Shown piece after piece: positions 3,816 to 63,497 of a DNA stretch of 64,000 nucleotides. Position numbers and translations under genes: made by a program. The notes beneath the pieces are model-generated. The model made no database searches. It was not told where the DNA came from and saw nothing but the letters and a program-made list of their open reading frames with translations. Within the stretch, counting starts at the first letter, position 1; each line of letters begins with the position of its first letter. The stretch comes from an uncultured Gammaproteobacteria bacterium (GTDB lineage Bacteria; Pseudomonadota; Gammaproteobacteria; GCA-001735895): NCBI GenBank assembly GCA_947260025.1, contig CAMYON010000001.1, positions 11,410-75,409 of the forward strand, written 5' to 3'.

Positions 3816-6047
3816 TTACTTGGTGGTGTGGGTGAACACGCCGTCCCAGTTTTCGCCTGGTGGCTCCCTGCGATAAACCGCGATTCGATCGAGGTACACT
3901 TGATAAAGCAGGCGCTCGGGGTGACTGCGGTTAAGGTTAAAGAAATCGGGCTCCGCCTTGTCCCATGACTGGGCGCGGAAATACCTTAATGCCTGCTTGT
4001 AAGCGGTAAGCTCTGAAGTAACCGATTTATCCAGATCATTCTTATGACCAACCGGTTCGAATATTGCTACCGGTTCATTCTTGCCCTTGACCCGCACCAG
4101 GTCGAGTTCCCGAAATACAAACTCGGGAATCGCATCCTTGGTGGTTTCGCTGACGATAATATTAGTCCCGTAGTTTTTGGTCAGGCCCTCGAGCCTCGAG
4201 CCGAGGTTGACCGCGTCACCGAGCACCGTGTAGGCCATGCGAAATTCCGAACCCATGTTACCGACGTTCATGTTACCGGTGTTTATCCCGATGCCGATAT
4301 CGACCTCTGGCCAGCCGTTCCGTTTGAAATCTTCCTGCATTATCTTGAGTTCGTTCATCATTTCCAGCGCCGCGTAAAGCGCATGCCTGGCATGCTCGGA
4401 ATCGACCAATGGCGCGCCCCAGAATGACATGATGGCGTCACCCATGTACTTGTCGATGGTGCCGCGATTCTTATGAATCACCCTGGTCATGGGGGTTAGC
4501 AGCGCGTTCATTAGCTGGGTGAGCTGTTTTGGGTCCATTCCTTCGGAAATGGAGGTAAAGCCACGCACGTCGGAAAACAAAACAGTCATTTCGCGATTTT
4601 CACCCTCGAGCGAGTATTCCTCGGGCGACTCGCTCATCTCGTCGACCAGTTCCGGTGGAATGTAATGGCCAAACAGATGGGCAAGCTGGCGCTTGCCGCG
4701 CGACTCGATAAAGAACCCGTAAGACATGTGCAGGATGAACATCAGCAGGATCAGCAACAGGGGACTGGCTAACGGTAGTATCAGATTGGCATTCCAGGCG
4801 ATAAAGGTGCCCGCCAGCACGACTACTGTCAGGGCGAGCGTTCCCGCGGCTGCGAGTAGCGGAGAAAGCAGGGGCAGCAGTAAGGCCATGGCGATAGCTA
4901 TAATTACCAGCAGCACAAACTCGTAACCGATCGTCCATGCCACCTTGTGTTTAATGCGATCGTCGAGAACGCCGGAAATGATATTAGCGTGAACCTCTAC
5001 TCCGGGATAAATGTTTTGTACCGGTGTCGAGCGCAGGTCGAGTAATCCCGGAGCCGTAGTGCCAACCAGCACGATTTTATCCTTCAGCGCCATGGGGTCG
5101 GTTTTACCGCTAAGTACCTCGTGAGCCGGGATATACGGAAAGCTGCCCTGTTGTCCGCGGTAGGGCACGAACACCGCGCCATTGGCGTCGACCGGGATGT
5201 GATAATCCTTGAGTTTAATCGTTTCGAGTGCGTAATAATCCTTGTCACCGCGCGTGCCCTCGGTTTTAACCTCCAGTTCGACCCCTGCAGAATCGAAGTA
5301 AGCCTGGGTGACGGCTAGCGCCAGCGAGGCAAACAAGTAGCCGTCGTAGGACTGCACCAGGGGTACGCGGCGAAATACGCCATCGGCGTCGACAAAAGGG
5401 TTATCGAAGTAACCGCCTGACCCGGCTGAAGATTGCAGTATCTCGAGGTTACCAGCGTAGCCGACTGCGTTGTTGATGGGCAGGCGTTCGCTCCACTGCA
5501 TGTCCATCCTTGTTAATGCTGGCGGCAGCAGGCCGGTAACCCCGTTTTCGCCTTGCTGCAGTTTCGACTTGAAGTAATACCCGAGAACGACATTTTTACC
5601 GATCAGGCTGTCGGCGAAGATCTCGTCATGCTTGAGGCTGGGGCGAATTTCGTCGAGCGCCTGTTGATACTGTGCATTATTCTTGAGCGAAGTCTGCGCC
5701 AGCTGTTCAAACATTTCCAGACCCGAACTCGTGTCTTTCTCTGCGAAAACAATATCGAAACCCACGACGTCGGCTTGATAGAGATTGAACAGGTTGTCGA
5801 CGATGGTCGCGAGCTTGTCCCGACCCCAGGGCCAGCGGCCAACTTCGGCCAGCGAGTTCTCATCGATATCGACAATGACGATGCGCTCGTCGATAGTATC
5901 GCTACGAGTGAAATTGAGCCTGGCATCGTAGGTCCAGTCCTCGAGTTGCTTGATAAACGGGTATTGGTAAAGCCCCGAGGTATCGATCAGCAACACAAGC
6001 AGGATGAAGGCGCTAAGTACCAGCCTGATTATGCGCTGTAGTTGCAT
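3816..6047 (-). CDS. CHASE2 sensor domain-containing class III adenylate cyclase
   Basis: 743 aa. It has an N-terminal signal/TM segment and a periplasmic CHASE2-like region, then a hydrophobic multi-TM block. The C-terminal cyclase domain carries LFSDVRGFTSISE...GTIDKYMGDAIMSFWGAP. The Lys in DKYMGD is the adenine-specifying position, so it reads as AC-type rather than GC-type. Confidence 0.8.
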   Translation of the reverse strand: MQLQRIIRLVLSAFILLVLLIDTSGLYQYPFIKQLEDWTYDARLNFTRSDTIDERIVIVDIDENSLAEVGRWPWGRDKLATIVDNLFNLYQADVVGFDIVFAEKDTSSGLEMFEQLAQTSLKNNAQYQQALDEIRPSLKHDEIFADSLIGKNVVLGYYFKSKLQQGENGVTGLLPPALTRMDMQWSERLPINNAVGYAGNLEILQSSAGSGGYFDNPFVDADGVFRRVPLVQSYDGYLFASLALAVTQAYFDSAGVELEVKTEGTRGDKDYYALETIKLKDYHIPVDANGAVFVPYRGQQGSFPYIPAHEVLSGKTDPMALKDKIVLVGTTAPGLLDLRSTPVQNIYPGVEVHANIISGVLDDRIKHKVAWTIGYEFVLLVIIAIAMALLLPLLSPLLAAAGTLALTVVVLAGTFIAWNANLILPLASPLLLILLMFILHMSYGFFIESRGKRQLAHLFGHYIPPELVDEMSESPEEYSLEGENREMTVLFSDVRGFTSISEGMDPKQLTQLMNALLTPMTRVIHKNRGTIDKYMGDAIMSFWGAPLVDSEHARHALYAALEMMNELKIMQEDFKRNGWPEVDIGIGINTGNMNVGNMGSEFRMAYTVLGDAVNLGSRLEGLTKNYGTNIIVSETTKDAIPEFVFRELDLVRVKGKNEPVAIFEPVGHKNDLDKSVTSELTAYKQALRYFRAQSWDKAEPDFFNLNRSHPERLLYQVYLDRIAVYRREPPGENWDGVFTHTTK

Positions 6048-6090: not shown

Positions 6091-6813
6091 TTACTTGAGG
6101 TAGAATTCCATCTTTACGCCAGCGACTTCGATGATGTCGTGGCTTTTGAGTTCGTGTGCGTTTGATCCGATTGGTGAGCCGCCAACTTTAGGCACGCTAT
6201 TATTTGGGCCACCATCGACGTGAATCAGAAAAAATCCCTGAGGCCGGCGGGTAATAGCCGCTACCTGCACCCCGGGTTGACCAATCGTGGTCAGTGCCTT
6301 GGTCAGTACCAGTTCCTTACCGGCGTTGGCGCCGCTGAGTAATTGCAGGCAGGCTTCCCTGTTCGCCATCGGTGAAGCGGCGGTCGTGGCTGCCTCGGAA
6401 GCGATAGCGGCAGAAATTTTCTGTACCGACTTGTCAATCTCCTTGCCACCAGCTTCTTCGGGCATTCCAGCTTCGCCCGGGCGTATGATCATGGTTTGCT
6501 CGAAATCCTGCTCACCGCCGCCGGAATTGTTTTGGTAGGTAATCTGATACTTGCCAAGCGTAATATTGTCGCCGTTTTCCAGGGCATGCTTTTTGACCAG
6601 TTTGCCGTTAACGTAGGTGCCATTGGTGCTGCCCAGGTCTTCCAGGAATGAATCTTCAAGAATGGTAATGACCTGCGCATGTCTGCCACTGACAGACAAA
6701 TTATCGATTTGTATGTCATTGCCTGGTTTGCGCCCAATCGTAGTTGTTTCGTTGACCAACTCGTACTCGGTTTTTTCGCCCGTGCTTGATGTAGTGATCA
6801 GTTTTGCGACCAT
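6091..6813 (-). CDS. FHA domain protein (N-terminal canonical FHA, C-terminal degenerate FHA-like domain)
   Basis: The N-terminus has TTIGRKPGNDIQIDNLSVSGRHAQV...GSTNGTYVNGKLV, which carries the G-R, S-x-x-H and N-G FHA motifs. A low-complexity Gly/Ala/Glu linker follows. The C-terminus has a second beta-rich FHA-like domain (TTIGQPG...IEVAGVKMEF) that lacks the SxxH/NG motifs. Confidence 0.75.
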   Translation of the reverse strand: MVAKLITTSSTGEKTEYELVNETTTIGRKPGNDIQIDNLSVSGRHAQVITILEDSFLEDLGSTNGTYVNGKLVKKHALENGDNITLGKYQITYQNNSGGGEQDFEQTMIIRPGEAGMPEEAGGKEIDKSVQKISAAIASEAATTAASPMANREACLQLLSGANAGKELVLTKALTTIGQPGVQVAAITRRPQGFFLIHVDGGPNNSVPKVGGSPIGSNAHELKSHDIIEVAGVKMEFYLK

Positions 6814-6857: not shown

Positions 6858-7682
6858 TTAATCGAACCAAGCGGCAAACTTTTTAAACCAGCCCTGCTTG
6901 GTCGAAAAATCTTCGTCAATTCGGCACAGCATTACCGAAATATTGTCCTTTCCGCCATTCTGGTTTGCCTTTGTAATCAATTGCTTGGCAGCTTCTTCTA
7001 GATTAGCACTAAATTCCTTAATAGTGTAGTCTATATCTTCATCTTCAACCAGATCGGTTAGTCCGTCTGAACATAGCAGATATATATCATTTTTCAGGAC
7101 TATATCTTCCTGAATGTCTGGCATGACGATTGGATCGATGCCCAGGGCACGCGTAACGAGGTTTTTATTCATCGAGTTACGGGCCTCTTCGGGCGTATAG
7201 AATCCGCGATCAATGAGCTCCTGCAGCAGCGAGTGATCCTTGGTAATTTGCTCAAACTTGTCGTTACGCAGTCGATAGCAGCGTGAATCGCCTATGTGGG
7301 CGAGTGAAAAGGAATTGTTGTAAAACTGCAGCACCACGATGGTCGTCCCCATACCCTTGTGTTCTGCGTTATCTTCGGCTGTCTTGTAGACAAGTTCGTT
7401 AGCGGCGACAACGGCGTCCTGAATGCAAATCGACTCCAGCGAGAAGCCGCTGGCATCGTCTATCTCTCCGGGAGTGATTTCGGGCAGACGCTGTTGCAGC
7501 AGCTCGATGATGGTGTCGACGGTCATGCTGCTGGCTATTTCGCCGCCGCGATGTCCGCCCATGCCATCCGCTAGCACCACGAGACCCAGCGCGCTGTCGT
7601 AACCTATCGCGTCCTCGTTCTTGCTACGAACCATGCCGGTATCGGTCAAGCCTTTTATCGTTATCTTGTTTTGCAAGTTCAT
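6858..7682 (-). CDS. PP2C-family Ser/Thr protein phosphatase
   Basis: 274 aa with GMVRSKNEDAIGYD, LADGMGGHRGGEIAS and a DG..D metal-binding signature typical of bacterial PP2C (Stp1/PppA-like). Confidence 0.85.
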   Translation of the reverse strand: MNLQNKITIKGLTDTGMVRSKNEDAIGYDSALGLVVLADGMGGHRGGEIASSMTVDTIIELLQQRLPEITPGEIDDASGFSLESICIQDAVVAANELVYKTAEDNAEHKGMGTTIVVLQFYNNSFSLAHIGDSRCYRLRNDKFEQITKDHSLLQELIDRGFYTPEEARNSMNKNLVTRALGIDPIVMPDIQEDIVLKNDIYLLCSDGLTDLVEDEDIDYTIKEFSANLEEAAKQLITKANQNGGKDNISVMLCRIDEDFSTKQGWFKKFAAWFD

Positions 7683-7695
7683 ATGACTGCCAAGA

Positions 7696-10416
7696 CTAGC
7701 TCTTTAAAAACGCTTTTAGCGCATTCGCAAATTCAATTCCGGTTTGAAAGCGCTGCTCCACGTCCTTGATCAAAGACTTGTTGATAACCGCCGACAAGGG
7801 CTCCGGTACCTCGGGGCGAATCGTTCTGACATCCGCCGCTTCCTCGTTGGTAATTTTAAACATCAGGCTGGCCATTGAGTCGGCTTTGAACGGCAACGAG
7901 CCCGACAGCATCTGGTACAACATGACACCCAACGAGAACAGGTCGGAACGGCCGTCAACTTTTTTACCGGCCAACTGCTCTGGCGACATGTACGAGGGTG
8001 TGCCCAGTACCGTGCCGGTTTTGGTTTTACTTGAATCGGTGATGCGAGCGATGCCGAAATCGGTGATCTTGACGGTATCGGATTCCGGTTCATACATAAT
8101 GTTTGCCGGCTTGATGTCGCGGTGCACGACGTTTTGTCGATGCGCGTAATCGAGACCCTCGGCGGCACGTGCAACGATACTTAGTACCAGGCGCATTTTC
8201 AACAAGTTATCGGGTTTGCAATATCTCGCGAGATCGTGCCCCTGCAGGAATTCCATCGCAATGTAGGCCAGGTCGTGCTCTTCCCCGGCGTCATAAATGG
8301 TAACGATATTGGGATGATTGAGGCGGCCCGCGGTCTCGGCTTCACGGAAGAACCGCTGCTTGACCTCTTCCAGTTCGTCGGCATCGAATTCCTGGGCCAG
8401 CGCCAGGGTCTTGATCGCAACCACGCGGCTTATTTTTGGGTCCTTGCCGAGATAGACGATACCCATCGCACCCTTGCCGAGTTCTTTTTCAACTTCGTAG
8501 CGACCCAGCATCGGTTTCTCGACACCATCCTGGTCCAGCATCAGGGTGCCGCCGGCGTGAGCGCCGCTGCTACCCAGCATGACGGTATCTTCCAATTTCT
8601 GCGCCCGGTTCATTCTGTTTTCGACGTCACGGAAGCCTTTCTCGTGCTTGGTCATGTACTGGTACACCGAGGTGGCCTTGTTAAACTGGCGCTTGCGTTC
8701 GAAATCGAGCGCCAGGTTATACATGGCCTCCAGCACCTGCTCATCGACCGGGCTGCATTTGCGGAACTTTTCGAATGCCATGTCGAGCTGCCCCTGGGTT
8801 TGAAACGCTATACCCAGCATCCGATTACTCTCGGCTGATTCCTCGTCCGACCTTGCCTTGCCGCGCTCGGTCACCAGGAAGCGCTTGGTCGTGATCAGCA
8901 GGTACCCGATGACCAGCAGGGCTCCAGGCGTCATCACCTGGACCCACATGGTGTTGCTGGTCATCAACAAGTAGTGCGTGACCACCAGCGCCAACACCAG
9001 CATCAGTGAGACGACAAACGCGACTCCAGCCTTGAGACGCGGCATCAACAGCATCAGGTAAAAGGCAACCAGCAGAAAAACGCCCAGGCGAGCCCAGAAA
9101 CCCCACTCCGGTTCGATAAAGAAATCCTCGTTGAGTATGCTCGAAACCGAGTGCGCCAGCGTCAGTACCGGTGCCATCGAAGGATTGATAGGCGTTACCT
9201 GGGGAGTACCGACACCGGTTGCCGTGGGCCCGATCAAGACGATTTTATCCTTGTATTTCTCGATAGGAATCTTGCCGGTAAATACGTCGTAGTAAGAATC
9301 TACCGAGAAGGCGGGAAACCCCTGGTTATCAGAGTAGAAAAAGGTATTCATTTGTAGCTGCGAGTCGGTCTTGATGGCCAACGATCCCAGTTCCACGCTC
9401 TCGCCAAGATTTATCCGTATATCGTTAACGTCGAGGTTAAGACTTCTGGCTGCAATCTGCAGCGATATGGAAGGATAGTAGCGATCGTAATGCAGCATTA
9501 CCAGAGGTTCAGAGCGGACGCCGCCATCAGGATCCGGCAGCTTGTTCAAATGGCCAATTGCCGAGGCAAACTGACCGACGTCGTCGATTGGCGGTAACGC
9601 GGCAACGGTGGAGACGGGGTACAACCCGTTAGCCTGTGCAGATACTCGGTCGCGCACCTGGTTGATTGAATTATTGAGCACGAAACCGGGCAGCTCTGCA
9701 TCCGGATTGCCGCGTGGAATACCCGGGTAAAACAGCATTGCCAGCACAACGTTGCTGGCATTTTCGATACTGGCCGCTAGCTTGGCATCGGTGTTGAGCG
9801 CCTGCTCGGCCTCGAACAGGCTCGATTTCAGGGTTTCGATGTCCTGACTGAGGCGTGTATTCATACTGGATTGCAGGTAAAACTCGAGAATTTCGGTGAC
9901 CGCCTGGTTGTTACCTTCGAACTCCAGCATTGCTCCTAACGCGTCGACATCTGCGGCTATATCGCCAAAACTGGCATTGGAGAAAAACTCGATTAGTTCG
10001 CGGATGTACAGTGCTCCAGGATCTATTTGCGGTTCCAGAAAAAATACGGTCTGACCAATGACCTTGGCACCACCCTCGGACAGGCGGTTGATCAGTTCGG
10101 CATGCAGATCTCGCGGCCAGGGCCAGCGGCCAATATTATCGATACTTGCATCGTCGATAGCGATTACGGCAATTTTTTCGGTAGGTTGACGGTCGGTAGA
10201 TCGGACACCCCAGTCGTAGAAGCTGCGTTCGAGACTCTGGAACGGGGCTGCTCCCGAAAACAGGACCACCACGATGGTAATCATCAGCCCAGCGAACCAG
10301 TCGCTACTCCAAAAACGGGTTCTCATACCGTCTCCATAGTTCAAATTATTATTAGCCGTCCTGCTGTTTATCGTGGTTTCTTGCAGGACTTGCGACTGGA
10401 TAAAACCAGATTCCAA
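7696..10416 (-). CDS. CHASE2 sensor domain-containing Ser/Thr protein kinase
   Basis: 906 aa. It has an N-terminal TM segment and a periplasmic CHASE2-like domain (IAVIAIDDASIDNIGRWPWPRD), then a TM segment and a helical/TPR-like region. The C-terminal Hanks kinase domain carries GKGAMGIVYLGKD...AIK...HRDIKPANIM...DFG. The true start may be the internal Met (MRTRFWSSDWFAG) about 30 codons downstream. Confidence 0.85.
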   Translation of the reverse strand: MESGFIQSQVLQETTINSRTANNNLNYGDGMRTRFWSSDWFAGLMITIVVVLFSGAAPFQSLERSFYDWGVRSTDRQPTEKIAVIAIDDASIDNIGRWPWPRDLHAELINRLSEGGAKVIGQTVFFLEPQIDPGALYIRELIEFFSNASFGDIAADVDALGAMLEFEGNNQAVTEILEFYLQSSMNTRLSQDIETLKSSLFEAEQALNTDAKLAASIENASNVVLAMLFYPGIPRGNPDAELPGFVLNNSINQVRDRVSAQANGLYPVSTVAALPPIDDVGQFASAIGHLNKLPDPDGGVRSEPLVMLHYDRYYPSISLQIAARSLNLDVNDIRINLGESVELGSLAIKTDSQLQMNTFFYSDNQGFPAFSVDSYYDVFTGKIPIEKYKDKIVLIGPTATGVGTPQVTPINPSMAPVLTLAHSVSSILNEDFFIEPEWGFWARLGVFLLVAFYLMLLMPRLKAGVAFVVSLMLVLALVVTHYLLMTSNTMWVQVMTPGALLVIGYLLITTKRFLVTERGKARSDEESAESNRMLGIAFQTQGQLDMAFEKFRKCSPVDEQVLEAMYNLALDFERKRQFNKATSVYQYMTKHEKGFRDVENRMNRAQKLEDTVMLGSSGAHAGGTLMLDQDGVEKPMLGRYEVEKELGKGAMGIVYLGKDPKISRVVAIKTLALAQEFDADELEEVKQRFFREAETAGRLNHPNIVTIYDAGEEHDLAYIAMEFLQGHDLARYCKPDNLLKMRLVLSIVARAAEGLDYAHRQNVVHRDIKPANIMYEPESDTVKITDFGIARITDSSKTKTGTVLGTPSYMSPEQLAGKKVDGRSDLFSLGVMLYQMLSGSLPFKADSMASLMFKITNEEAADVRTIRPEVPEPLSAVINKSLIKDVEQRFQTGIEFANALKAFLKS

Positions 10417-10662
10417 ATCGTATATTATTCAATAGTTTATACGATCACCATGAACTGGTTAACAGCTAGAAGTCTACGCGCCCACCAATTAAATCGCGAT
10501 GGCCTTAGACTATAAGGTTGTATGCCCTTTTTTACCAGAGCTAAGCCCTAAAAAGTTGATTAAGATTTCCAATTTGAAATGCTCGTTAATTGACCTGGAC
10601 TTGATTCGATCTGCGTCTGATTATCCCGTTTCCCCTTTGCAGGTCGGGTATCGACAAATGTC

Positions 10663-10828
10663 AGAATTGCTCCGGAGAATCGAACGGCTTGAGGATCAGC
10701 ACATCGATCCGGATATATTTGAAGTCTTCATCCGTGAAAGGGTTTGCCTGGACTATGCGGAAGCGTTTCTGGATCCAGAACAGATAGATGAGATCGATGA
10801 AAGCCTGATACCAGGTTATGCAGGCTAG
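10663..10828 (+). CDS. Hypothetical small acidic protein (MSELLRRIERLEDQHIDPDIFEVF...); alternative longer ORF from 10499
   Basis: It lies in the AT-rich gap between the STK and cNMP-rhodanese genes, on the opposite strand. I recognise no family. The start is ambiguous, the Shine-Dalgarno is weak, and the coding potential is uncertain. Confidence 0.2.
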
Positions 10829-10852: not shown

Positions 10853-11908
10853 TCAGGCGGTTTCGAGATCGGAAGGCTCGGCAGTATCGACTCCGTCCCT
10901 TAATACGTAAGTTTCGATATCTTTTTCGTTTAGCAGAAATGAGGCGGCCGAGCTGCGGCGACCGGTGTCACAGTAAATGACGTATTTCTTGTCGGTATCG
11001 AGTGAATTTGCTTTCATGCGTAAAAAAATCAACGGAATGTTGATACTGCCCTTGATGTGTTTGGCCTTGTGCTCGGTCGGCAAGCGCACATCGAACCAGA
11101 CCGCACCTTCCGCCACCAGCTTCTTGCCTTCATCGTACTCGACCCAGTTAAGTAGCGGTTCGTTGAGCAGAGAGTTGAAATCCTCCTTGTTCAGTCGCAT
11201 CAGGTGGCCATCGGTAAGCATGGTAATGGTAGCGTTACGTTTGCTGTCGGAAATCAGGGCTTCCTCACCGAAGCTGTCTCCAACCGACAGGGTTGCAAGT
11301 TTGACACCGTTGGGATTGGCGGGTGTCGACCGGGTTACCAGGCAGCGACCTTCCTTGATGATGTAAAAGTAGTCACCCTCGGCATCCTGCTCGATGACTT
11401 TATCTCCGGGTTTATAGCTTACCGATTCCATGCGCATGAACATTGCCTGGATGTTGGCCGGTGGGATGCGATGAAAAGCCCGGGTTTGAAGGATTCGCGT
11501 CATCCAGTCGGTTTCGTCGTCATCTTCGTCGACTGCTTCAACCGAGTAACTGCCGGTTTGATCCCAGGTCAACATGATATCGAGCATGTCGCTATTGATC
11601 TTGGTGATTACGACAGCGGATTTGGCGCGTGCCGAAACCGGGCGCGGAAAGCCGTGAGCGATTGGCTGCAGCCCGTCTGGCGAGCCCGCCTTGATGACCT
11701 TTACCACTTTCTTGTCCTGCAGCAGTTCGATTTCACCCTGGAGCAGGTAAACATGAACCTTGTCCAGGTCACCTTTCTTGAAAATATAGTGGCCTGACTG
11801 TAACGGGGTAGCGGATATTTTTTTGATTAATTCTTGAGCGTTTTCAGGATTCAGAGAATTGATCGGGGAAAGTGATTTTATTTGATTGGGATCAATTTCA
11901 AGGCTCAT
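10853..11908 (-). CDS. Tandem cyclic-nucleotide-binding (CAP_ED) domain protein fused to a C-terminal rhodanese domain
   Basis: It has two cNMP-binding beta-barrel regions (..YIFKKGDLDKVHVYLLQGEIEL.. and ..GDYFYIIKEGRCLV...GDSFGEEALIS..). The C-terminal rhodanese domain has an intact active-site loop, YCDTGRRS (Cys-X4-Arg). Confidence 0.8.
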   Translation of the reverse strand: MSLEIDPNQIKSLSPINSLNPENAQELIKKISATPLQSGHYIFKKGDLDKVHVYLLQGEIELLQDKKVVKVIKAGSPDGLQPIAHGFPRPVSARAKSAVVITKINSDMLDIMLTWDQTGSYSVEAVDEDDDETDWMTRILQTRAFHRIPPANIQAMFMRMESVSYKPGDKVIEQDAEGDYFYIIKEGRCLVTRSTPANPNGVKLATLSVGDSFGEEALISDSKRNATITMLTDGHLMRLNKEDFNSLLNEPLLNWVEYDEGKKLVAEGAVWFDVRLPTEHKAKHIKGSINIPLIFLRMKANSLDTDKKYVIYCDTGRRSSAASFLLNEKDIETYVLRDGVDTAEPSDLETA

Positions 11909-12024
11909 GTCTTATTCGGGAATCCTTTGCATGCAGCATAAATAAATCGCTATTTTGGCGCTTGGTACCCGATAAAGCAACTACTGCAACCAAATAATCG
12001 AAGTGGGTCACAGTCCGTCCAATA

Positions 12025-13845
12025 TTATCCCGATTGGCTTGTTATATCCACGTAGAGCTTGAGCTTCTGACCGGGTTGCAGGTATTTGCCGATTCGATTC
12101 CAGCGTTTGATGTCGGCCACGCGGATATTAAAGCGATCCGCGATGCGATGCAGTGAATCTCCCTTGCGGACGGTGTAGCGCAGCGCATGCAGTGCATTGC
12201 TGGGGCGCGTCTGGTTGATACTGACGGTCTGCGACAGCTTGCCTCTGGTCCATACCACCAGTTTCTGGCCAACGCGCAGCGTATCGATCGGCGCCATCCC
12301 GTTCCACTTGGCCAGTGCCTTGGTGGTGACGCCGTAGTTTCTGGATATACTCCACAGGCTCTGACCGGGCCGGACGATGTGCACCTGCTTGGTACCCGAA
12401 CGATTGGTATTCTGAATTTGAGCGATGCGAGAATTTTCGCTTAGCGTGTAGCTTTTCAGCGACTTGGTTGCGGTGGGAACCATCAGGTACTTGCCGGCAC
12501 GGATATTGGTGCCGCGTATATTGTTGACGTCCTTTATCAGGGCAACAGAGGTCCGGTACTTGTTCGAGATATGGCTCAGGGTTTCGCCGTTTCTGATCTT
12601 GTGCCGTACCCAGTTGATTCGCTTGCTCGGCGGTACCTTGGCGACCTCAATCTTGAATTGCTCTGCGCTGCCGCGCGGCAGTAGTAATCGATGCGGGCCG
12701 TTGGGCGCCGTTGCCCAGCGATTGAATGCCGGATTCAACTGGTATAGCTGGTTAACCGAAATACCGGCGAGATCTGCCGCCAGTGCCAGGTCGATCTGAC
12801 CATCGAGTTCGACGATTTCGTAGCTGACCTGGTTGCCAACCGGGACCAGGTCTAACTGGTACTTCTCGGGATGGGCGAACAATTCCTTGAGGGCGAACAT
12901 CTTGGGCACGTAGTTACGGGTTTCCTTGCGAATCCTGGTCAGGTGCCAGAAATCCGTGGGACGCTTGCGCTTCTTGTTGTAACGCACGGCGCTACGTATC
13001 TTGCCGGGACCGGCATTGTAGGCGGCCAGCGCCAGTTCCCAATCGCCGTTGAACTGGCGTGCGAGGCTGTCCAGGTAGCTTATTGCGGCGTGTGTCGATT
13101 CGATGATATCGCGGCGACCATCGTACCACCAGTTTTGCTTGAGCCCGAGGAAACGGCCCGTCGACGGAATAATCTGCCACATGCCCGAAGCGCGGCCGTG
13201 CGAGTAGGCGAAGGCCTGGTAAGCGGATTCCACGATCGGCAACAGGGCCAGTTCGGTCGGCAGGCCGCGTTGCTCTAGTTCGTCGAGGACGAAAGGTAAA
13301 ATCGGCCGAGCGCGCTCCATCACGCGCTGCATGTAACCCGGATGGTCGAGAAACCACTTGAGCTGCGCCCTGACCCGGGGATTATCAACCGCCGCCATTT
13401 GCATGCCATTTTGCAGCCGGTACCAGGCGTTATGCTTGTTGCGGGTTTCCGCTAGCGAAGCCTTGATCGCGGCCACTACCGCGGCTTCTTCCTGTTGCTG
13501 TTTTTCAAGCGCCAGTGCGGTCTGCGCTGCTTCAAATTCATAATCGACGGGCAGCGACCTTGCTACTGGTTCGGGCTCGGTTGAATCTGTAGGCCCGGTT
13601 GAATCTGGTCGGCTCTCCATCGAAACGACGGTAGCGGCGGAATAATCGTCTGTTTCCAGCGGTGATGCCGCGGTTGCCGGGGATGCGGAAATCTGGGATT
13701 CCAACGGGGTCGCTAGCGCTGTTGCAGCCTCGTTTTGCCTGGTTGGAGCGGTGCCCGTACTCGCGCACCCGGCTAGCATCAACACGATCAATGCGGCGGC
13801 AAATATATTCCTTTCCCCGAAAAGGGGCTGATGCTTGATAAACAT
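12025..13845 (-). CDS. mltD: Membrane-bound lytic murein transglycosylase D with C-terminal LysM repeats
   Basis: It has a lipoprotein-like N-terminus (LAGCAS) and an SLT catalytic region (ESAYQAFAYSHGRASGMWQIIPSTG...AYNAGPGKI). Several LysM repeats follow (e.g. YTVRKGDSLHRIADRFNI). Confidence 0.85.
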   Translation of the reverse strand: MFIKHQPLFGERNIFAAALIVLMLAGCASTGTAPTRQNEAATALATPLESQISASPATAASPLETDDYSAATVVSMESRPDSTGPTDSTEPEPVARSLPVDYEFEAAQTALALEKQQQEEAAVVAAIKASLAETRNKHNAWYRLQNGMQMAAVDNPRVRAQLKWFLDHPGYMQRVMERARPILPFVLDELEQRGLPTELALLPIVESAYQAFAYSHGRASGMWQIIPSTGRFLGLKQNWWYDGRRDIIESTHAAISYLDSLARQFNGDWELALAAYNAGPGKIRSAVRYNKKRKRPTDFWHLTRIRKETRNYVPKMFALKELFAHPEKYQLDLVPVGNQVSYEIVELDGQIDLALAADLAGISVNQLYQLNPAFNRWATAPNGPHRLLLPRGSAEQFKIEVAKVPPSKRINWVRHKIRNGETLSHISNKYRTSVALIKDVNNIRGTNIRAGKYLMVPTATKSLKSYTLSENSRIAQIQNTNRSGTKQVHIVRPGQSLWSISRNYGVTTKALAKWNGMAPIDTLRVGQKLVVWTRGKLSQTVSINQTRPSNALHALRYTVRKGDSLHRIADRFNIRVADIKRWNRIGKYLQPGQKLKLYVDITSQSG

Positions 13846-16480: not shown

Positions 16481-16595
<115 letters not shown>

Positions 16596-63162: not shown

Positions 63163-63365
63163 TCAGAGAGACACACACAGTTGGCGATAATGGAACAACG
63201 CGACAAGCTGTGAGAACTACCACCCGCAGTTCTGGTCTTGTTAAATCACTTTCAGGCCGGTCTCCGGACTTCGAAGACATTAGCTGACTTCGTTACCGTT
63301 GCGGGGGCAGTACTCGATTTGCACGAGTTTCCCGATTCTCGCGACTGGCGCGCACCTGAAAACGT
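63163..63365 (-). promoter_or_regulatory. Cobalamin (AdoCbl) riboswitch in the btuB leader
   Basis: The minus strand has GAGAATCGGGAAACTCGTGCAAATCGAG (compare E. coli btuB AATAGGGAATCCAGTGCGAATCTGGAG). It continues CTGCCCCCGCAACGGTAA, then the B12 box AAGTCCGGAGACCGGCCTG. P1 pairs TCAGG with CCTGA. A downstream hairpin AGAACT-N9-AGTTCT lies just before the RBS. Confidence 0.7.
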
Positions 63366-63497
63366 GGGCCTAATCTTTGATAAAATGTGTCTCGATGTCC
63401 AGTAAAAGGAGGGCACGATGTCGCAGATAGACTATATTTGCGTCGATACTGGTTCTGTCGCATGATCCCATTCTCGAATTATCGCCGCTAACTATCC

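Follow-up and report, generated by a model that had tools for sequence, protein, structure and literature searches.

We analysed a stretch of 64,000 nucleotides from an uncultured Gammaproteobacteria bacterium (GenBank assembly GCA_947260025.1, contig CAMYON010000001.1, positions 11,410 to 75,409), here called the window. On its minus strand lies a gene for a soluble, cytoplasmic protein of 351 amino acids, in which two cyclic nucleotide-binding (CNB) domains, CNB-A and CNB-B, are followed by a rhodanese. The reading we prefer, with slightly less than even confidence, is that this protein is a receptor for cyclic AMP (cAMP), whose CNB-B gates a Cys-dependent persulfide step of the rhodanese. 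This reading draws on the near-invariant phosphate-binding cassette of CNB-B, the conserved Cys of the rhodanese, the predicted packing of these two domains against each other and the presence of cyclase genes near the gene in some lineages.

The gene and the parts of its product are listed below, with positions in the window (cNMP, cyclic nucleotide monophosphate; pLDDT, predicted local distance difference test).

10853..11908, minus strand: CNB-A/CNB-B/rhodanese gene, 351 amino acids, the short form of its family (open reading frame; Pfam PF00027 twice and PF00581)
11561..11866, minus strand: CNB-A, residues 15-116, cNMP-binding fold with a degenerate phosphate-binding cassette (PF00027 alone, Foldseek, AlphaFold2)
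11624..11686, minus strand: CNB-A pseudo-cassette, residues 75-95, GSPDGLQPIAHGFPRPVSARA (gap-free HMMER alignment to the PKG cassette)
11507..11560, minus strand: acidic linker, residues 117-134, QTGSYSVEAVDEDDDETD, predicted disordered (pLDDT <50 for residues 118-133)
11144..11506, minus strand: CNB-B, residues 135-255, canonical cNMP-binding domain (PF00027, 66.5 bits alone)
11228..11272, minus strand: CNB-B phosphate-binding cassette, residues 213-227, FGEEALISDSKRNAT (PKG alignment, family counts)
10889..11143, minus strand: single-domain rhodanese, residues 256-340 (rhodanese fold)
10952..10972, minus strand: rhodanese active-site loop CDTGRRS, residues 313-319, with Cys313 (PspE alignment, family counts)

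Two CNB domains joined to a rhodanese

The interval 10853 to 11908, marked in an initial annotation of this DNA, is exactly an open reading frame that starts with ATG on the minus strand. An AAGGA motif resembling a Shine-Dalgarno sequence is found 14 nt upstream, and 116 bp separate the frame from the mltD-like gene that precedes it. In terms of Pfam domains, the protein contains cNMP_binding in two stretches (94.7 bits) and then Rhodanese (48.3 bits, cut-off 22.2). This agrees with the annotation, which had proposed a cyclic nucleotide receptor fused to a rhodanese with its catalytic Cys. NCBIfam gives domain-level matches only, far under any equivalog cut-off. The order of the parts is CNB-A, acidic linker, CNB-B and single-domain rhodanese. 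The full-length AlphaFold2 model has three well-folded domains, with a mean pLDDT of 79 and a predicted template modelling score (pTM) of 0.41. As for the first two domains, Foldseek matches them to the tandem CNB-A/B of PKA regulatory subunits and PKG, with E ~1e-18 over 250-300 alignment columns.

The gene is real and under selection. We found 7,233 relatives of the protein at E<=1e-5 in a collection of 5.8 billion proteins, and 1,329 representatives of 50%-identity clusters for the CNB-rhodanese module at E<=1e-30. Orthologues with 72-96% amino acid identity are present in 58 syntenic loci, and across these relatives dnaQ, rnhA and mltD are less conserved than the CNB-rhodanese gene. The closest named organism is the Gamma 3 endosymbiont of Olavius algarvensis (91%), the other close relatives being uncultured Gammaproteobacteria from sediments. 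A scan of the locus for promoters and terminators returned sites no more numerous than in shuffled controls.

Neither HTH_Crp nor any other DNA-binding family was found in the protein by Pfam at E<=0.01. A CRP/FNR transcription factor was rejected, since the helix-turn-helix is absent after the CNB domains and the C-terminus is a rhodanese instead.

CNB-B is the most conserved domain of the protein, with a mean top-residue frequency of 0.63, compared to 0.52 for CNB-A. It passes the PF00027 cut-off, has the beta-sandwich fold and contains a cassette of the form Gly-Glu followed by Arg-x-Ala-[ST]. This cassette, FGEEALISDSKRNAT, aligns column for column with that of PKG, FGEAALIHNTQRSAT. When the window protein is aligned with 145 representatives of the family (all counts out of 146 refer to this alignment), G214 and E215 are present in every sequence, F213 in 144, R224 in 142, A226 in 134 and N225 in 133.

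A different picture is seen with CNB-A. Taken alone (residues 1-126), it has the domain and the fold, with 33 bits against PF00027 (cut-off 27.5), and pLDDT for residues 11-110 lies at 81-94 per block of 10 residues. The pattern Gly-Glu...Arg-x-Ala-[ST] is absent when the domain is aligned to PKG. In the gap-free alignment to the PKG CNB domains, the cassette Glu is replaced by Leu80 (Arg in the family consensus), and Pro90-Val91 occupy the [ST]-Ala position after the Arg (Gln-Leu/Val in the consensus). Arg89 itself is retained (139 of 146), and Pro88 is found in all 146. Because the Glu and the [ST]-Ala are lost while Pro88-Arg89 is near-invariant, CNB-A is degenerate as a cNMP site, with a conserved pattern of its own. 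Whether both cassettes are intact had been raised in the initial annotation: this holds for CNB-B, whose Gly-Glu...Arg-x-Ala is near-invariant across the 146 members, and fails for CNB-A, where Arg89 is kept and the Glu is lost. Judged from these alignments, CNB-B is the only plausible nucleotide site of the two.

In the rhodanese, CDTGRR occupies residues 313-318 (nt 10955-10972). The surrounding YCDTGRRS is in gap-free register with YCNAGRQS of PspE and SCHSGLRS of CoA-persulfide reductase (8a56), which places Cys313 on the catalytic Cys of PspE and of the reductase, the canonical position that the annotation had assumed. C313 and S319 are each present in 139 of 146 sequences and R318 in 127, and every short form keeps C313. 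D314 (128 of 146) is a family-specific acidic residue after the Cys, within the consensus CD[TS]GxRS. By its sequence, the rhodanese retains its catalytic Cys within a sulfurtransferase-type loop, and sulfurtransferase activity itself is predicted.

The loop from C313 to R318 is CX4R, six residues, the same length as in PspE. Sulfurtransferase rhodaneses have loops of six residues, as opposed to the seven-residue CX5R of phosphatases of the Cdc25/arsenate-reductase type. Cdc25-like phosphatase chemistry, which had been offered as an alternative output, was therefore rejected on loop length.

Only ~5 residues lie between the hinge helix of CNB-B and the first strand of the rhodanese. When CNB-B and the rhodanese are modelled alone (residues 131-351, alignment of 33 sequences), AlphaFold2 gives a pLDDT of 92.8 and a pTM of 0.80. 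These values are high and predict, with confidence, a single compact and rigid unit in which the two domains are well oriented. Among the structural neighbours, no solved structure covers CNB-B and a rhodanese together.

The family and its genomic neighbourhood

The complete CNB-A/CNB-B/rhodanese module is N-terminal, or comes first in a sequence whose N-terminus is truncated, in 149 of the 150 best cluster representatives. Short forms have ~340-375 amino acids and stand alone; the window protein falls within a contiguous block of 17 of them in a neighbour-joining tree without support values. Mid forms mostly have ~400-1,200 amino acids; many of them carry a coiled-coil-like tail, and some may be cut short by the end of a contig. 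Long forms have 1,040-1,808 amino acids (for example P0124, P0126, P0128, P0131 and P0160; loci L075 and L080-L083). In these, the module is followed by a linker of 355-1,086 residues, then by a single hydrophobic segment and, from ~100 residues on, by an FGE-sulfatase domain (PF03781). Four of the five long-form loci also have an ABC-2 transporter pair, located 1-3 genes downstream.

The named carriers of the module are Inmirania thermothiophila, Sulfuriflexus mobilis, Thiohalobacteraceae, Thiotrichales, Acidiferrobacterales, Candidatus Muproteobacteria and the Olavius Gamma 3 symbiont. We take these to be sulfur-oxidising gammaproteobacterial groups, or metagenome-assembled genomes (MAGs) assigned to such groups, in a small sample with no null comparison. 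Source annotations are generic, such as “cyclic nucleotide-binding domain-containing protein” or [quoted passage not shown]. A profile search aimed at named homologues of greater diversity recovered mainly the close clade once more. We found no published characterisation of this large and widespread family, and our literature searches returned no description of a CNB-rhodanese fusion.

Downstream of the gene, the window contains the following neighbours.

10499..10828, plus strand: GAF-HD-GYP remnant, 109 amino acids (550 in relatives), convergent with the CNB-rhodanese gene (comparison with locus L002, blastn breakpoints)
7696..10416, minus strand: CHASE2/transmembrane/TPR-like/Hanks Ser/Thr kinase, 906 amino acids (Pfam CHASE2 and Pkinase)
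6858..7682, minus strand: PP2C (Stp1-type) Ser/Thr phosphatase (NCBIfam NF033484, 251 bits, cut-off 230)
6091..6813, minus strand: FHA-domain protein (Pfam FHA)
3816..6047, minus strand: CHASE2/transmembrane/class III adenylate cyclase (Pfam CHASE2 and Guanylate_cyc)

The cyclase lies 4.8 kb downstream of the CNB-rhodanese gene, four genes away, with the HD-GYP remnant, the kinase, the PP2C and the FHA protein in between. Its closest solved domain is CyaB of P. aeruginosa. In GTIDKYMGD it has Lys, as does the adenylate cyclase CyaB, whereas Cya2, a guanylate cyclase, has Glu at this position; the Thr in YTVLGD is likewise as in CyaB. The adenylate type that had been assigned to it is supported and, because of this Lys, cAMP is its likely product.

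The cyclase is present in every relative at least 72% identical for which at least 9 kb of downstream sequence exist. Further away, a 45%-identical homologue (L087, 10001-16785) is followed by genes for a TPR and a FecR-domain protein and, at 3.5 kb, by a convergent CHASE2 cyclase. The latter is 42% identical to the window cyclase over the full length and for this reason is probably its orthologue; gene order and orientation differ. In the cultured Sulfuriflexus mobilis (AP018725.1, L084 9001-12926), a class I CyaA stands convergent ~100 bp after a short-form homologue of 346 amino acids. This class I family is unrelated to the class III of the window. Another locus (L085) has a class III cyclase 7.5 kb upstream of the homologue. 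Only two distant cases, L087 and S. mobilis, carry independent weight, because the synteny of the close clade parallels that of housekeeping genes. Taken together, the proximity of cyclases is suggestive of a cAMP link without being conclusive. The cyclase belongs to the same signalling island but is neither a direct neighbour nor an operon partner of the gene, and the link is supported in some lineages only.

The remnant occupies the gap of 437 bp between the CNB-rhodanese gene and the kinase. According to the blastn breakpoints, it arose by an internal deletion of ~1.43 kb at ~10690-10694, corresponding to positions 11216-12651 of L002. The gene is intact in most relatives (in L002 at 11082-12734; Pfam GAF and HD_5 are found in L076 and L078), where it is transcribed towards the CNB-rhodanese gene and away from the kinase operon, and it was lost in at least three (L004, L023, L053).

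The CHASE2 kinase is syntenic down to relatives of 54% identity and was lost in six close ones (L013, L022, L024, L027, L032, L052). These six keep the CNB-rhodanese gene, the PP2C, the FHA gene and, where the contig extends far enough, the cyclase. Their phosphatase and FHA protein are thus found without an adjacent cognate kinase. The FHA protein is the most conserved product of the island, with 100% amino acid identity to that of L002. In the closest relatives (CNB-rhodanese at least 85% identical) its identity is 94-100%, against 70-96% for the neighbouring genes. Its C-terminal half has no Pfam family.

With a kinase so close, the protein could act like a regulatory subunit of PKA, that is, as an inhibitor of the neighbouring CHASE2 Hanks kinase that cAMP releases. 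The tandem CNB fold is indeed closest to PKA-R and PKG, and the Ser/Thr kinase is only 437 bp downstream, in the synteny just described. We consider this role very improbable. No RRx[S/A] pseudosubstrate is found N-terminal to CNB-A, where only 14 residues precede the domain, and just one CNB domain has a functional cassette. The kinase is also missing in the six close relatives and in every lineage that retains the module at less than 54% identity, and such a role would leave the conserved rhodanese Cys unexplained.

A cyclase and a CNB protein in one locus also recall the Pycsar anti-phage module, made of a cyclase and a CNB effector. PADLOC matches CNB-B to PycTIR effector models and the cyclase domain to PycC, in both cases at the level of single domains. 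These matches cover generic CNB and class III cyclase domains only, the effector domain is a rhodanese and not a TIR or transmembrane domain, and the two genes are not an adjacent pair. Furthermore, the cyclase is a CHASE2 membrane sensor, and the locus belongs to the core genome, being syntenic with dnaQ-rnhA-mltD across many species. The probability of a Pycsar module is therefore close to nil, and Pycsar or any other defence system was rejected.

Elsewhere, the window genes looked at are ordinary housekeeping genes (fabI-like, recR, rsgA, motAB, lpxC, dnaX, smpB), with no sulfur-oxidation genes among them. A bacterial small signal recognition particle RNA is found upstream of dnaX (16490-16585, plus strand, 62.7 bits), and a cobalamin riboswitch near the window end (63238-63374, minus strand, 85 bits).

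A possible cAMP-gated persulfide step

As for the possible mechanism, cAMP would bind CNB-B; its source could be the CHASE2 cyclase of the island, other cyclases in the cell, or both. The hinge helix (residues 241-250) leads directly into the first rhodanese strand, and ligand binding would move it, as is typical of CNB domains. This movement may alter the access to Cys313, its reactivity, or the face with which the rhodanese binds partners, so that cAMP would control the formation or transfer of persulfide (sulfane sulfur). CNB-A would be a domain for dimerisation, docking or auto-regulation, and not a second cAMP site. There is precedent for such an arrangement among the structural neighbours, where solved bacterial CNB-enzyme fusions include the acetyltransferase Rv0998, the EAL enzyme Bd1971 and PycTIR. 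A cAMP-gated rhodanese would, by analogy, follow the logic of Rv0998 and Bd1971. A cAMP effector with a sulfur-transfer output stays the best single explanation, at a probability just short of one half.

Several observations weigh against this explanation. The Arg of the CNB-B cassette is followed by Asn and not by Ser, Thr or Ala, which is uncommon, so the specificity for cAMP is putative. The rhodanese Cys is replaced by Ser or Gly in seven of the 146 module sequences, all of them mid or long forms (P0211, P0220, P0223, P0242, P0246, P0259, P0261). In 60 long forms, the linker that follows the module has a median of 869 residues, 67% of them A/E/Q/R/L/K and 5% P+G, its coiled-coil character being judged by this composition and by eye only. 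Because of this long coiled-coil-like stretch and the seven Cys-less members, a non-catalytic role of the rhodanese is possible; likewise, because the module often heads giant coiled-coil membrane proteins, so is a role as sensor or scaffold. Among the conserved neighbours there is no sulfur-metabolism gene.

The link to the cyclase is also affected. The gene is not encoded next to the adenylate cyclase, as the initial annotation had it: 4.8 kb lie between them and, because the opposite-strand GAF-HD-GYP gene stands in this space, the two were ancestrally separate transcription units. Two relatives of 54-55% identity (L076, L078) keep mltD, GAF-HD-GYP, kinase, PP2C and FHA and have no cyclase. 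The same absence was seen in the flanks examined of ~12 other lineages, including all five long-form loci. A cyclase near the homologue in three of ~15 lineages corresponds to P ~0.01-0.06, a rough estimate that assumes 10-20 cyclase genes per genome of 3-4 Mb and an interval of +/-5 kb.

These points bear on the main rival explanation, in which the rhodanese is the input. Cys313 would sense sulfane sulfur or redox state through persulfidation or oxidation, and the module would integrate this with cAMP and signal by protein contacts or localisation. We consider this somewhat unlikely. The module heads proteins of ~1,000-1,900 amino acids with no further cytoplasmic enzyme domain detected, a position usual for sensors, and the seven Cys-less members are all mid or long. 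Every named carrier is a sulfur-oxidising gammaproteobacterium or a MAG of such a group, and the synteny with the kinase/PP2C/FHA set reaches 54% identity. Against it, in the solved bacterial CNB fusions the CNB domain is the regulator and the C-terminal domain the regulated enzyme, and the conservation of the Cys and its loop (139 of 146) is equally compatible with catalysis. Also, six close relatives keep the gene and have lost the kinase, and the synteny with the kinase set parallels housekeeping synteny, so it may reflect common descent only. An extension of this explanation, again on the unlikely side, is that long forms would pass the signal along the coiled-coil tail to the membrane and periplasm, and the short form would dock on a partner, for instance in the FHA/kinase/phosphatase set.

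A third explanation keeps a cNMP receptor that has nothing to do with the island cyclase, their proximity being synteny only and the ligand perhaps cGMP or another cyclic nucleotide. This fits with the cyclase missing in the 54-55% relatives and in most other lineages, with the opposite-strand gene ancestrally between the two, and with the atypical Asn after the cassette Arg. It is harder to reconcile with two classes of cyclase beside homologues in three separate lineages, and with the adenylate-type Lys of the island cyclase. We regard it as distinctly improbable.

Considering the family as a whole, the module may be a signalling head not described before, apparently belonging to sulfur-oxidising Gammaproteobacteria, in which cAMP is coupled to persulfide chemistry. 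The short form would then be a diffusible cAMP-gated persulfide carrier or sensor. In the long forms, the coiled-coil-like stretch and the membrane segment would tether this head to a periplasmic FGE-sulfatase-like domain, giving a novel type of transmembrane scaffold or signalling device that links the periplasm to cytoplasmic cAMP and sulfur status. This wider proposal is speculative, and we think it unlikely to hold in full.

If the cAMP-gated rhodanese is real, it would add persulfide and sulfur trafficking to a short list. Bacterial cAMP signalling is understood almost wholly through transcription factors of the CRP type; the direct effectors characterised outside transcription are few, namely a lysine acetyltransferase, an EAL phosphodiesterase, ion channels and CbpA. 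Sulfur oxidisers would gain a post-translational link from an envelope-sensing CHASE2 cyclase to sulfur handling. Sediment and symbiont metagenomes are rich in members of the family, which is directly testable because cultured members exist (Sulfuriflexus mobilis, Inmirania thermothiophila). The architecture of the giant forms, with their coiled-coil-like stretch, membrane segment and FGE-sulfatase domain, is itself unexplained.

Comparison with known systems

Both domain families are textbook knowledge, as are bacterial enzymes regulated by CNB domains. What appears to be new is the fusion of CNB domains with a rhodanese, of which we found no description in the literature searched. The closest parallels in general plan are Rv0998/MtPat, the mycobacterial cAMP-regulated lysine acetyltransferase (PDB 4ava), and Bd1971, the cAMP-regulated EAL phosphodiesterase of Bdellovibrio (PDB 6hq5), both of which are CNB-enzyme fusions like the window protein. 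Their outputs are GNAT and EAL domains, compared to a rhodanese here, and each has a single CNB domain instead of a tandem of one degenerate and one canonical copy.

For both CNB domains of the window protein, the best matches in sequence and fold are the tandem CNB-A/B of PKA regulatory subunits and PKG. Unlike these, the window protein has no dimerisation/docking domain, no pseudosubstrate site and only one intact cassette. It ends in a rhodanese, whereas PKA-R and PKG have a kinase or kinase-binding function. An orthologue of PKA-R was rejected, given the lack of an inhibitor site and the single working cassette. Degenerate CNB domains are known within the PKA-R/PKG group too, as in the third CNB domain of Plasmodium PKG.

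The nearest analogue for a degenerate-plus-functional pair of CNB domains is CbpA (PA4704) of P. aeruginosa, compared here by domain description only. It reportedly has an N-terminal degenerate and a C-terminal functional CAP domain and is not a transcription factor. It is also said to be polar, with a cAMP-dependent localisation. CbpA differs from the window protein in having no rhodanese.

Lastly, in terms of the rhodanese, PspE, GlpE, YgaP and CoA-persulfide reductase share the fold and a six-residue Cys loop in register with the window protein. NCBIfam and the PDB list PspE and GlpE as thiosulfate sulfurtransferases. The rhodaneses of these four are stand-alone or fused to redox enzymes, none to a CNB domain. 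Compared to these, the acidic residue after the Cys (CD[TS]GxRS) is the window family's own.

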